DNA of 63,395 nt, filler included, from Licmophora abbreviata (Eukaryota), in NCBI GenBank assembly GCA_900291995.1. It is 16 parts of 16 records of this genome, joined end to end, with 100 filler letters (N's around TTAATTAATTAA, not from the genome) between each part and the next. Parts side by side here need not be neighbours in the genome. Positions count along the whole stretch, not along the records: positions 51,008 to 57,378 come from OLMU01003988.1; 15 more parts are not named here. The stretch is one strand, 5' to 3'. The notes beneath the pieces are model-generated. The model had not been told where the DNA came from. It searched no databases and saw only the letters and a list, made by a program, of their open reading frames with translations. Below, piece by piece: positions 51,175-57,642 of this stretch (position 1 is the first letter of the stretch; every line of letters starts with the position of its first letter). Made by a program: the position numbers and the translations under genes.

Positions 51175-53391
51175 ATGATAACGCTCTTCTCGGCTGGGAA
51201 GCTCCTGATGCTCTCTGCGACGCTCTGGGCGTCGCATGCGGATCAGCCAATGGGCTGCACCTTGTGTTCGAACGGTGATGCCTTCAACCCGATTGCCGTC
51301 ACGGATTTTGGTGAGGACGTAGTATCCCTGTTGGCATTACTGCATCATACGATATGACATGACGCTATCCTGCATGACTCTCACGCCACTTTTGTGTGCC
51401 CCATGGTCATTATTACACTTTGCTATATACACAGGTGTTCCTTGTGCTGTCTTGGCAGTGACTGCGAGGACACTTGAGCCCCCTCCCGATACGGAATGTC
51501 TCGCCATTCAGTTTACTGGTTTTCAGCAGTGTGGGTAAGTCATATAGTACGTCGGGGTCGTCTGCCATGCGTGCTGTGGCGACGAACGATGAGAGGAATG
51601 AATCAGACGACAGAAACGCGAGTACAAATCCTGGTTTGAGATAACCGCATCTCAATCGCCGCTATTCTGCACTCTACACAACAGCTGCCCCAACCTTCCT
51701 GATATTATTCCTGGTGACACGTGTCACGTCTGTGGCGATAGTTCGCTCTCCTTCAATGAGGAAAAGCAAGTCTTCGACACGGAACTTGTCAGTCCGATCT
51801 TCTTTGGCGACGAAACCACCTGTGGAGAACTCAATACGGTTGCGTCCTTTACTCCTGATACGGTTGGTGCATGCGGCGTCTTTGAATCGCTCGGGGGCTA
51901 CTGCGAGTGCGAGGGACAAACTCCTTCCTGTACAGTGTGCCCAGATGGGACGCCTGTGCCAGATCCTTCCTTGAGTCTAGCCGACCTGGACGGTCTGACC
52001 GACCTCATTGACTTTGAATTTGCCGATCCGGACCAAATAACCTGTGGTGCTCTTGATTTCGCGGCCGCCTTTGTCGGAGGTGATACTGGTTCAGATCAGT
52101 GCAATCAACTCCAAGACTTTGCCTTTGCCTGTGGGTGTCCGGGCGCGGAACCAAAATGCACGTTGTGTCCACTGGGAGAGTCACCTCCCAACGCGAATGT
52201 GGTTGTTCCCACCATTGGTGGAGCGGAATTGTCTTGCGCGGAGCTTAATACGGCTGTTACGGCCTTTGCGGAGGAGGCGCAATGCTCCACCGCACAGAGA
52301 ACGGGAGTTCTTTTGTGTGGGTGCCAGCCACCTGAGGAGACAGGCGGATGCGGCACCTCCATCTGCCCGAACGGAAGTGCCATTCCCGACCCGGACGCTC
52401 TTGTCTTCTTTGGAGGTTGGTATTGGATCAATCGTTGTGGCTCTATCTATTTACTTTGCTCGTGACTTACTCTATGAGTGCGTTTCCGTTCTATGTAGGT
52501 GCCTTCTTAACATGCTCCGAGCTTGAGACTGTTCTCAACGTACTAGATGATCCCGTGGACTGCGAGCAGGTAGCGTTCATTGGCGTCCAGCTTTGCGGCT
52601 GCACCGGTGGAGACCCTCCTAACTGTCCTTTATGCGAAGACGGATCTGACATTCCAGAACCTCTTTTGGAGATTGGTCCCGGCGAGGTTTGTGTTGACCT
52701 TGCTTTCGACGCTTTCAGCCTGGTGCCTGGTGACGCTTCGTGTACTGCCGTTCAATCCACAGTCGGTGTCTATTGCGGTTGCTCCAACCCCATTGCGGCT
52801 CCCAGCGCCTGTCGTCTCTGTGGAGATGACAATCTTCTCCCGGACCCTTCCCGTGAAGTCTCAGCTCCTGGTGCTTTGTCGTTTCTTTCGGGTAGCTGCG
52901 GTCGTATCGAACTTCTTGCCACTGCTGGAGACGTTGCTTGTGGTCAGGCGCAGGCGAACTTTGGCATGGAATGTTGTGTAGCTGATGATCCGCCTACGGC
53001 ATCTCCAACTGCCCCTCAACCCACAACAAGTACCACCGACCCGCCCGTCTCCGACATGCCTTCTAGCGCCCCAACTGGTGAGCTTCATCGTGGAGTTTTC
53101 CTCTTGGATTTCAATGATCGTCACTAACAATAATGCTTTCGCTGCTTCTCGCTTTCAGTCTCCCAGACGCAACCTCCTCAGACACAGCCGCCTTTCCCTA
53201 CATCGGGTAGTGTTGCAAAGACGCCGACTGCGATTTTTGCCATCGTTATGTCGAGTTTCGCATTGATGTCCTATTTTGAGAATGGATCTGTTGATGAAGC
53301 GAAAGTAATAGTAGCGATGGCTGGAACCTGGGGTCGTAAGCTAGCCAAAGATATTGAGAAGGACTATGTAGTAAAACGTTATACGCAGTAG
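51175..53391 (+). CDS. Cys-rich repeat secreted/cell-surface protein family copy C (exons 51175-51310, 51435-51534, 51685-52415, 52499-53077, 53159-53391)
   Basis: Signal peptide, about 7 repeats of CxxC-x(n)-PDP-x(n)-TC-x(n)-C-x(n)-CGC, a Pro/Thr/Ser stalk (PTASPTAPQPTT, PSSAPT) and a hydrophobic tail. All junctions are GT..AG and in frame. Confidence 0.85.
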
Positions 53392-53528: not shown

Positions 53529-54830
53529 TTACATTGCCGTTCCGTACGGAGGCCGCATAATGTATTTGAGCATGACGGCCTTGTCGTGTGTCACTCCATG
53601 CTCGTCGCTATCGTCCACAAAGTGTACCATGCAGAACGACCCGCCTCCGCTCACCTTCCGCGGCGCTTGGACAATCGTGGCTTGGTAAAAGGAAGTTGTA
53701 TCTGGATAAACTGCAAAGACTGCGTCTCCCCGCGCCAACTTCTCCAAGGTACTCAATACAACAACTTGTGGCTCTGGAAGATGGAACACTGTGGTCGGGA
53801 GCGATGCCGAGGTATGAGCACTAACTCTCGTCATACGGCTTACACACTACAAACATGGTATACTTACCTTTGTTGCTTTCGACGTCTTCGTCGGACAGAG
53901 TATATATGCCCGTTGTGGCATCGTGCGAAATCACCTTTGCCAAGATCCAGTCGGGCGACGCTGGATTGGTCTGAATCGCCGCCAAGTCGTTAGGCTTGAC
54001 ACCGCCCTCGCTCTCATACTCGCCCGTGACCTTGAGAAGAGCATACACAAGCAAAGTTAGCACACAAGCCAAGTTGGCAATATGAAAAAGATCGAGTCTC
54101 ACTAGTAGAGAAGACTGTCCGAAGTTTCAATACCTTGAGTAGTCTGCGCCATCGCAGTTGTCGAGGAAACAGAGCGCGGAAGGGCGGTGAGTATATAGAG
54201 GGCATATCAAGTCTATCGCCCAATATCTCAACCTCACTTACGATTCCAATCTGTTCAAGTCACTGTCAAGTCTCCGCACTGTCGCATCTACCAATGCCTG
54301 AGTTTGCTCGGCAATGGCAACCTTCTCCTCCGCTTGTTGCATAGCATCCTGACGTAGTCTTGCAATTCGTCTATACGAAGGAAGGTCCTGAATGTAAGTT
54401 CTGAGTTCCTCTGTTGTCGGGACAATCGCAGGTCGCTCCCCGTCAGTCTCCGAGCTTAACACCAGGACACCAGGAGTGCCCTCCGCAGTGATTCCCGGTT
54501 CCAGTTGCATGACTTTGGCCTCGGCCTGCTGGACAAACTCTTGTTGAGCCTTCCGAAGTTCTTCTAAACGTTCACTGGTATGAGATCAAAATCGAAGGAG
54601 GGAGGATAGATAAGAAACCAAACATTACACACAAGCAAGCTCTCTTTGAGATACTACGAGTTGAAAGGTCTCGGCGTAGACCTGAAAGCCGACAGCATAG
54701 CAAATATAGTGACACACACTCACGAGCACGAGGTATCGACGCTCTTCAGCCAGTCCATATTTCGTCTGATTTCATGCGGCATTGTCGCAAGAGTCTCAAC
54801 GAAGGACTCTAAATACGTTTCGTCTCCCAT
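53529..54830 (-). CDS. SGF29: ING N-terminal domain plus SGF29 tandem Tudor protein (exons 54830-54724, 54574-54242, 54143-54134, 54030-53868, 53788-53529)
   Basis: ING-like TYLESFVETLATMPHEIRRNMDWLKSVD and AEEKVAIAEQTQALVDATVRRLDSDLNRLE. SGF29-like WILAKV...YTLSDED, VFAVYPDTTSFYQATI and VHFVDD. Confidence 0.85.
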
Positions 54831-55094: not shown

Positions 55095-57305
55095 CTAATA
55101 GTCATCGTCGGGCCCAGCTATGCGAGTGACAATCCGTAGCTTGTTGTGCAGTAGTCCCCATGAGCGAAATCGATGAAACACCGGCAGAGTCAAGCCGAAC
55201 CTCCAGCACAACGCTGCTGTCGTAACTTGCCCCGTCAGGGCATCGGCATTGACCAGCTCCTGGAACATCCGCTCTTCCGGGCTGTCGCTAGACGGATTCC
55301 AGCTTTTGTCGTTATCGTCGATCGCCTTGTTGTTTGGATCATTACTTGTGGATTTTACCTTTGTGTCGTTGTACGCGTTGACAGCAACGAGGAACTCTTC
55401 CACCTCGATGACAACCTGATGCGATCGAAGCCATACAGCCATGTCATACACGAGCTCCTCCAATGACTCGTTCGGACGTGCTGGTGGCGATCTCTCCCCC
55501 GTGGAAGACTTGAGCAACGCCGCGGCCAAGACACCGTCGCCAGCACTGCTGCTTCCCGTCGTCAGCGACGCAATGACCTCGTCCAGTGTCTCGCTCTTGG
55601 AAGTTAGCAGCGACGTAACGACAAAGATAGACTGATGGTAGAACCGACGTGAAAAGGCCAGTGATAGGTCTTGTAGTCGTGTCACAACGTTCGTACAACA
55701 TGCCAGTCGTGTCGATCGAGTCAAGACTGGCGATATGAGAGCGGCGTGTTGCCGAACTAAGTATTGGGCCAAATCAAGCACGATCTGGAGAGGCAGTGCC
55801 GTGTCGAAGGCAATTTCTTGCAAGGACCTGCGGGGGCTGGCCATAAGCAGCAACTGTCGCAGTCGCCGCTGGGGCGTCGCGACAAAAGTCGTGTCGTTGA
55901 GCTCACTAAGTAGTGATGACAAGGTCTCGACCAGTTCACTCGGTGATGCATGAGGGAAAAGTAGCGTGTGATAGGCACGTGGTGTTCCAACTCTCCTGCC
56001 CCCCATTTCCGGCGGAGCAGCCGCTGATTCAATGGGCACAGCCAAATGACTATGAATATAAACAACACCTTGTGACCCACTTAGCAGCACCGAAGGAGTG
56101 GGCGTGTAGTCTTGTTGGTTGCGGGATAGAGCGTGGAACACATCTACCAGTTCGCGTGCCAGATTACCGTGCAATCCCTCAGGCGGCGGTGCTGACAGCA
56201 ACAATTCCAACAGCTCTTGTTCTTTTTCATAACGATGCTGCTCGTCCCACTGAGCCTGTTGATTCATTGCATGTAACTCCGAGGGCCCATGATGATGATG
56301 GTCGGATGTCGCGGCCGCTTCGGACGCCACGGCACTCAGCGACGCCGTCGTCACCCCCGATAGTACTCGTCGATGCTCTCCTCGTCTTGAAATACTGCTT
56401 GTGGTTGTATCGGTTGTCCCATTCGCACCACTGTTATTTCGTACATGCGCTTTGTCGTCGTCGTATTGCCGCGAGCGCACGTGTGCAGCAATTTTTAGAA
56501 ACTGCGAGGACTGCCGCGATACGTAGCGACAGCGCCGCTCTTCCCGTTCCAGGACGCGTCCTAGTCGTGCTAGTGATATGTGGACTTGTCGTATGGACAA
56601 AAAGGAAAGCGAGGCATTGCGTCTCTGGCTCTTAGTAACAGTCGTGGCAGAAGACGGCCGTTGAAGTTCTTCGTCCGTCATCAGGGCTCCCCCGGGGTCT
56701 TCCATGGTTTCCTCAGAAAAAGTCGAAGCGAACCAGCCTGAAATTGGAATGTTCGAAACGGAAACCGAAGGCACCAGTGCCACAATAACATTGAAGAGAA
56801 CAAGCGGAGAACCACTACTAGTTGTGCTTCCAGCTTCCTCTTCGCCGCCGTCTGCCACGGGCGGCGGCTCATCATCGAATAGCACTGCTCGGCAACAAAA
56901 CACGGTACCACCGACACTGATCGTCATGGGCTGTCCACAAAGCGGTTTCTTCGGTCGAAAGAGCTTGGCCATCACTCGGGGAAGGAGCGTAAAGAACAGA
57001 TTTTCCTCTCGCGGTGGATCGTAAACGCTGCTGTTACCATGCTGCGTGGTACTAGGAGTGTTACGACTTGCACGTTGCGATGAGACGGGGTATCGTACGA
57101 CCAGCTGGGCACCCTTTCCTCTATTCTCCACGACCAGGGCGATTCCCAATACTCGAAAGGGTGCACTGGGATGCAGTGGATCGGCAGAACCATCGCTGCT
57201 GTCGCTGGTGGTAGCCTCAGCCGCCGTCATGGTGATGGCCACACAGTGATGGTCTGTCATGGGATTTTTGATTTTTGGCGTCGTCGCGCACCTCGCGAGG
57301 TCCAT
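55095..57305 (-). CDS. NPRL3: GATOR1 complex subunit NPRL3/Npr3 (start may be 57305, 57260 or 57230)
   Basis: LGIALVV...GAQLVVRYP longin start, AKLFRPKKPLCGQ, LFNVIVAL, LEREERRCRYVSRQ, NLARELVDVFHAL, RAYHTLL and SPRRSLQEIAFDTALPL. Confidence 0.85.
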   Translation of the reverse strand: MDLARCATTPKIKNPMTDHHCVAITMTAAEATTSDSSDGSADPLHPSAPFRVLGIALVVENRGKGAQLVVRYPVSSQRASRNTPSTTQHGNSSVYDPPREENLFFTLLPRVMAKLFRPKKPLCGQPMTISVGGTVFCCRAVLFDDEPPPVADGGEEEAGSTTSSGSPLVLFNVIVALVPSVSVSNIPISGWFASTFSEETMEDPGGALMTDEELQRPSSATTVTKSQRRNASLSFLSIRQVHISLARLGRVLEREERRCRYVSRQSSQFLKIAAHVRSRQYDDDKAHVRNNSGANGTTDTTTSSISRRGEHRRVLSGVTTASLSAVASEAAATSDHHHHGPSELHAMNQQAQWDEQHRYEKEQELLELLLSAPPPEGLHGNLARELVDVFHALSRNQQDYTPTPSVLLSGSQGVVYIHSHLAVPIESAAAPPEMGGRRVGTPRAYHTLLFPHASPSELVETLSSLLSELNDTTFVATPQRRLRQLLLMASPRRSLQEIAFDTALPLQIVLDLAQYLVRQHAALISPVLTRSTRLACCTNVVTRLQDLSLAFSRRFYHQSIFVVTSLLTSKSETLDEVIASLTTGSSSAGDGVLAAALLKSSTGERSPPARPNESLEELVYDMAVWLRSHQVVIEVEEFLVAVNAYNDTKVKSTSNDPNNKAIDDNDKSWNPSSDSPEERMFQELVNADALTGQVTTAALCWRFGLTLPVFHRFRSWGLLHNKLRIVTRIAGPDDDY

Positions 57306-57642
57306 GACGGCCCATAGACCTCGCGGATTGGTAAAGGCTGCAAATCACACGCAACACGCCATGAGATTTTGCCGTCGCNNNNNNNNNNNNNNNNNNNNNN
57401 NNNNNNNNNNNNNNNNNNNNNNTTAATTAATTAANNNNNNNNNNNNNNNNNNNNNNNNNNNNNNNNNNNNNNNNNNNNGTAAAGGCTGCAAATCACACGC
57501 TACACGCCATGAGATTTTGCCGTCGCATCGAGTCCTCGTTATACACCCTTCGTCTCCCTCCGTTGTACAGATTGACTCTACTATCACAGCAGACTAAAAC
57601 CCCCGCTTCCTTTTCAATTGAATTACTTGTTCTTACAAGATA

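Follow-up and report, generated by a model that had tools for sequence, protein, structure and literature searches.

Here we describe a gene of the diatom Licmophora abbreviata whose predicted product of 290 residues carries an ING domain at its N terminus and an SGF29-type tandem Tudor domain at its C terminus. The gene occupies positions 54830-53529, on the minus strand, of the window (the whole stretch of DNA that was analysed, 63,395 nucleotides in length). The co-occurrence of the two domains is confirmed and stands well above chance. The initial annotation, which was made from this DNA by itself, had described the gene as a chimera in which one reader of H3K4me3 had been swapped for another, an exchange that could wire a hybrid acetyltransferase/deacetylase module in stramenopiles; both the swap and the hybrid module are conjecture. 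As a one-off the chimera does not hold; instead, the architecture is kept as the standard of a lineage, with both domains present in 104 of the 120 relatives listed (out of 209 matches), the Tudor only in 13 and the ING only in 3. Taking the evidence together, we put at roughly 90% the probability that this is a real gene with a conserved architecture whose product probably reads H3K4me2/3. Histone acetylation is linked to H3K4me3 by two classic adaptors, the ING proteins and SGF29, whose enzyme complexes differ and whose reader folds are unrelated. A major algal lineage in which an ING head is combined with an SGF29 reader offers a natural experiment on the modularity of such adaptors.

Gene structure at the Licmophora locus

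Splice signals and the sequences of relatives define one gene of five exons on the minus strand, which is read from a start codon (ATG, 54830-54828) to a stop codon (TAA, 53531-53529). Its exons are as follows.

54724..54830, minus strand: exon 1, with the ATG at 54830 and the first ING helix region; phase 2 at its end, donor GTGAGT
54242..54574, minus strand: exon 2, with the end of helix 1, the loop insert and the second ING helix; GTAAGT donor
54134..54143, minus strand: exon 3, a 10-nt microexon with AG/GT flanks that codes for the link between the ING helix and the Tudor part
53868..54030, minus strand: exon 4, with the linker and the first Tudor barrel (WILAKV region)
53529..53788, minus strand: exon 5, with the second Tudor barrel and the stop codon (53531-53529)

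The introns are 149, 98, 103 and 79 nt long, and all four have GT..AG boundaries. A profile built from 12 full-length relatives matches the five-exon model in a single unbroken alignment (458.8 bits), and the 290-residue product aligns to full-length relatives over residues 1-290 with 62-64% identity. Two other splice choices scored lower against the same profile. A model that lacks the microexon and uses an acceptor at 54098/54097 reached 437.5 bits, and one that uses an exon 5 acceptor at 53774/53773 reached 433.0 bits; the acceptor at 53789/53788 is preferred on the sequences of the relatives as well. Every full-length relative joins its second ING helix to the Tudor part by a short linker, for which the microexon is the source. 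On these signals the transcript is predicted to be spliced as modelled, with five exons and four introns. A 218-nt contig from one RNA run maps to 53629-53845 and, as it covers part of the modelled intron 4, is uninformative about splicing. Directly after exon 2, a TAA inside the GTAAGT donor (54238-54243, minus strand) is in frame, and a transcript that kept intron 2 would encode the ING part only, in about 147 residues.

The neighbours of the gene are a pseudouridine synthase, a P450, an NPR3-like open reading frame (ORF), an endonuclease V and a PRPP-synthetase N-domain, none of which is chromatin-related. Directly upstream, an unbroken frame of 749 codons (55095-57344, minus strand) matches NPR3 at 19.9 bits, below the cutoff of 27.5, and its product is possibly a GATOR1-type subunit. 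Downstream and convergent lies a gene region on the plus strand (52336-53391) that has no Pfam match; it encodes cysteine-rich repeats, a stretch rich in proline and threonine and a hydrophobic tail, features reminiscent of a secreted or surface protein.

The ING head and the Tudor reader

The translations of exons 1, 2, 4 and 5 were scanned separately against Pfam. Both N-terminal exons match ING (PF12998): exon 1 with 21.1 bits (E = 4.6e-4, profile positions 1-30 of 102) and exon 2 with 32.4 bits (E = 1.4e-7, profile positions 58-101; cutoff 23.9 bits). Exons 4 and 5 match SGF29_Tudor (PF07039), the former with 16.9 bits (profile positions 13-44 of 132) and the latter with 47.8 bits (E = 2e-12, profile positions 70-129; cutoff 23.8 bits). 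The peptides by which the initial annotation had recognised the two domains are found in minus-strand frames at the positions it gave, and its proposal that the PHD finger is missing agrees with the scan, which gave no PHD match to any of the four exon translations. The stop codon comes right behind the Tudor, and two cysteines were counted by eye in the 290-residue protein. The precomputed Pfam assignments of the relatives likewise contain no PHD entry, PF07039 and PF12998 being the only families listed.

The head is more than the ordinary coiled coil of SGF29, the possibility that the initial annotation had set against its own ING assignment. Two stretches of exon 2 and the insert between the helices are referred to below.

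54250..54381, minus strand: second helix of the ING domain (exon 2 translation, residues 65-108), as matched by Pfam
54403..54420, minus strand: PTTEEL motif, within the loop that joins the two ING helices

In Asterionellopsis glacialis (taxid 33640; relative P0004), the counterpart of the second helix aligns to ING4 and ING5 chains. A plain phmmer search with P0004 matches ING4 (4afl) over both helices with an E-value of 4e-6, and also matches ING5 and ING3. A profile of 16 non-diatom members matches residues 4-107 of the 107-residue ING5 chain (5mto/5me8) with an E-value of 2.5e-17, followed by ING4 (5.7e-17), ING3 (1.2e-11), Yng2 (9.2e-6) and Pho23 (0.037). Because the best values are those for ING5 and ING4, the head is most similar to the ING proteins of acetyltransferase complexes, in a ranking where yeast Pho23 is the single deacetylase-type ING and an N-terminal structure of human ING1/2 is absent from the matches.

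In the AlphaFold2 model of P0004 (mean pLDDT 79.4), long helices span residues 20-59 and 101-152, and the C-terminal end forms a beta-rich tandem domain. When the head was compared by VIA-align, many generic helical hairpins were returned with Z-scores of about 9. ING3 (8cok_B; Z 8.6, r.m.s.d. 2.6, 94 residues aligned, 27% identity) ties with these hairpins, and thus the fold of the head is by itself non-discriminating. The matches listed by Foldseek for the P0004 model are all of Tudor type, and a homodimer prediction with two P0004 heads (residues 1-155) gave scores of 0.00 and 0.00, which favour neither outcome. The insert between the two helices (54382-54510, minus strand; residues ~60-100 of P0004) is a property of diatom-type members and carries the PTTEEL motif. 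Across 12 diatom-type relatives, four residues of this motif (P, T, T and the first E) never vary, and conservation of the second E and of the L is at least 90%. AlphaFold2 models it in P0004 as a beta hairpin with short helices; it is missing from the compact members of other ochrophyte classes.

The SGF29-type tandem Tudor claimed for exons 4 and 5 stands on sequence and structure comparisons alike. The non-diatom profile gives E-values of 2.1e-25 for the human SGF29 Tudor and 6.3e-10 for yeast Sgf29. Foldseek ranked human SGF29 Tudor structures first for the P0004 model (3mea, E = 1.3e-8), and VIA-align superposed it on yeast Sgf29 (3mp1; Z 13.1, r.m.s.d. 2.8, 120 residues aligned) and on human SGF29 (3me9; Z 13.0). 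In human SGF29 the methyl-lysine cage comprises Y238, Y245, F264 and D266, as given in part of PMC4589357. When aligned to the human chains, all four of these H3K4me2/3-binding residues are kept in exon 5, and the corresponding columns are invariant across 12 relatives.

53613..53708, minus strand: cage codons, Tyr 53708-53706, Tyr 53687-53685, Phe 53621-53619 and Asp 53615-53613

With this intact cage, we infer on good grounds that the Tudor pair would bind the H3 N terminus carrying K4me2/3, as do human and yeast SGF29.

Distribution across Ochrophyta

Named members of the family come from diatoms, pelagophytes, chrysophytes, xanthophytes, Chrysoparadoxa and Nannochloropsis, and the lineages checked are all Ochrophyta. 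The diatoms include Stephanopyxis, Extubocellulus, Chaetoceros and Thalassiosira pseudonana; the non-diatom members named are Chrysoparadoxa australica, Tribonema, Epipyxis, Nannochloropsis gaditana, Pelagophyceae sp. CCMP2097 and Chrysophaeum taylorii. Each named diatom species has one entry among the 120 matches listed. An exhaustive search of representative sequences gave 1713 matches at E ≤ 1e-3, of which 141 were at E ≤ 1e-30 and 150 were listed. Leaving aside 14 of the 150 that had been seen in earlier family searches, Pfam was run on the remaining 136 and found both domains in 43 (E ≤ 1e-3) and neither in 3.

In a tree of 46 sequences (quick search, LG+G4, SH-aLRT support only), the Licmophora protein falls within a diatom clade of 16 (support 98). 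The pelagophyte clade (100), the chrysophyte-type clade (99) and the clade of diatoms plus their sister group (99) follow the ochrophyte classes, which fits vertical descent from an early ochrophyte. Across the named members, the two-domain protein is passed on as a unit. P0179, P0255, P0275 and P0291 are deep-branching members. The sister of the diatoms is the group of P0182 and P0197 (support 99), two proteins in which the ING domain has become undetectable: the Pfam ING score falls within the family from 66 bits (P0179) to nothing in these two full-length proteins, although both align end to end with the family.

Several entries sit apart from this pattern. P0204, labelled as a Bolivina argentea (foraminifer) transcriptome, groups with Chrysoparadoxa (support 91), and P0296, labelled as an Alexandrium tamarense (dinoflagellate) scaffold, lies inside a 90% cluster of T. 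pseudonana; both are probably carry-over, prey or contaminant sequence. Two unnamed proteins, P0171 (523 residues) and P0201 (484 residues), have a partial fungal-type Zn2Cys6 match (22.5 and 22.0 bits, respectively, over 22 of 39 profile positions) upstream of ING and Tudor, and this extension may be a merged gene model or real.

In the ESM Atlas, one cluster whose commonest phylum is Chlorophyta has PF07039 in 100% and ING in 86% of its 56 members, the phylum being known for 7 of them. We treat it as a lead only to an ING-headed form beyond Ochrophyta. The streptophyte and ascomycete SGF29 clusters of the Atlas carry no ING signal. Within Chlorophyta, according to part of PMC7915528, Mamiellales and Chloropicon are the only groups with SGF29, and ADA3 is undetected.

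Candidate partner complexes

The protein would be a nuclear-type adaptor of 290 residues. Its Tudor pair would bind H3K4me2/3 on the H3 N terminus, its ING head would be the piece that docks into a histone-modifying complex, and the docked complex would thereby act on the nucleosomes of active promoters. ING4/5, Yng1 and Yng2 dock in MYST complexes that contain an EPc/BRPF-like scaffold and Eaf6. The head has departed so little from ING4/5 that it probably still binds a partner surface of the same kind, and for this reason a MYST-type acetyltransferase complex is the partner we favour, at somewhat short of even odds. It would be a complex of the NuA3, HBO1 or NuA4 kind, with an EPc/BRPF-like scaffold and Eaf6, in which the job of an ING protein is done with a Tudor reader standing where a PHD finger would be. 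Membership of a MYST complex would mean that reader domains can be exchanged as cassettes. Part of PMC4035532 lists ING proteins as subunits of NuA4, NuA3, Tip60, HBO1, MOZ/MORF and Rpd3L, and names Sgf29 as the SAGA reader of H3K4me2/3.

A different placement, which we regard as possible though doubtful, makes the protein the ochrophyte orthologue of SGF29, residing in the GCN5-ADA2(-ADA3) module of a SAGA- or ADA-type complex. In canonical SGF29 the N-terminal helical region anchors to ADA3 in the GCN5 module. The ING-like head would then be ancestral, and the anchoring helices would have drifted past detection by Pfam in animals, fungi and land plants. The shared plan speaks for this orthology (about 260-300 residues, a helical N terminus and a C-terminal tandem Tudor), as do the single copy per named diatom among the matches listed and the fading of the ING signal inside the family. 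Since P0182 and P0197 have undergone the same decay, failure to detect ING in canonical SGF29 does not exclude homology, but it is also true that the canonical SGF29 clusters lack any ING signal. The likeness to ING4/5 (the E-value of 2.5e-17) is well above what one would expect of a head that has spent more than 1 billion years binding ADA3 and not EPc/Eaf6. The chlorophyte Atlas cluster, if the lead is right, cuts both ways: it would put the ING-headed form in two distant lineages, as expected of an ancestral head, but it would also place that form where, on the portion of PMC7915528 cited above, ADA3 is undetected. Were the protein to belong to a GCN5 module, homology between the ING head and the SGF29 anchor would be probable, and the view of how acetyltransferase complexes originated would be revised.

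A more far-reaching idea, rather unlikely in our estimate, is that ING proteins and SGF29 are ancient sister adaptors that share one N-terminal docking domain. The ochrophyte proteins, and possibly some from green picoalgae, may then be living intermediates that still carry the marks of each; what is called a 'coiled coil' in canonical SGF29 would be an ING domain that has degenerated; and the reader subunits of GCN5- and MYST-type complexes would have a common origin, differing mainly in whether a Tudor or a PHD finger is attached.

It is improbable that the protein instead serves a deacetylase complex of the Sin3/Rpd3L type as its reader, docking as ING1/2 and Pho23 do and directing deacetylation to H3K4me3 chromatin. 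Complexes of the Rpd3L type also use ING-family heads (as part of PMC4035532 indicates) and the non-diatom profile does touch Pho23, but weakly; Pho23 is the poorest of the ING matches, some 50 bits under ING4/5, and nothing else points to such a complex.

Public gene models and known systems

The initial annotation had allowed that its two halves might prove to be separate transcripts. In relatives, both are joined in single, complete, transcript-derived ORFs from MMETSP, among them P0004, P0015, P0020, P0021 and P0030. The MMETSP clusters mix shorter ORFs (for example, P0136 and P0141) with full-length ones. Among the 150 listed matches of the exhaustive search, about 30 stop near profile position 205 and about 30 more near positions 147-152. 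Position ~205 corresponds to the exon 4/5 junction and ~147-152 to the microexon, and the ING-only and Tudor-only entries therefore look like broken gene models. Public protein models often end at, or run through, the introns around the microexon. An exon of 10 nt accounts for public models that are split into ING-only and Tudor-only fragments.

That the fusion is an artefact, of two adjacent genes or of an ING-only product with the Tudor exons in another transcript, is very improbable: the gene model at the Licmophora locus does rest on homology, its frame would close at once if intron 2 were retained, and numerous database models have ING alone or Tudor alone, but both halves occur in complete transcript-derived ORFs of several diatoms, the spliced model aligns to those ORFs over residues 1-290, and the breaks in the fragments match intron positions, as expected where gene callers miss a microexon.

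The architecture is already tagged automatically in public databases. Three entries (P0036, P0057 and P0068) bear the JGI label 'SGF29 tudor-like domain/Inhibitor of growth proteins N-terminal histone-binding', and at NCBI P0050 is named 'Inhibitor of growth protein 4 [Seminavis robusta]' and P0071 'SAGA-associated factor 29 [Fistulifera solaris]'. All five have both Pfam domains, and the automatic names conflict, ING4 against SGF29. A search of titles and the beginnings of abstracts, with most subscription journals outside its range, found no published description of an ING domain joined to an SGF29 Tudor, and the available portions of 10.1101/2021.11.30.470311, PMC5906684 and PMC4751559 do not mention it.

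Two sets of known adaptors can be compared with the ochrophyte protein. With human ING4 and ING5 and yeast Yng1 and Yng2, which serve HBO1, MOZ/MORF, NuA3 and NuA4 as reader subunits, it shares the two-helix ING domain and the general design of a small adaptor with a C-terminal reader of H3K4 methylation. The reader of ING4 and ING5 is a PHD finger, whereas that of the ochrophyte protein is predicted to be an SGF29-type tandem Tudor; in addition, the diatom members differ from ING4 and ING5 by the PTTEEL insert between the helices. Human SGF29 (CCDC101) and yeast Sgf29 resemble it in their PF07039 tandem Tudor, methyl-lysine cage, size and domain order. In SAGA, ADA and ATAC, SGF29 serves the GCN5 module as its reader. 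The difference lies at the N terminus, which scores as ING in the ochrophyte protein but not in the streptophyte and ascomycete SGF29 clusters.
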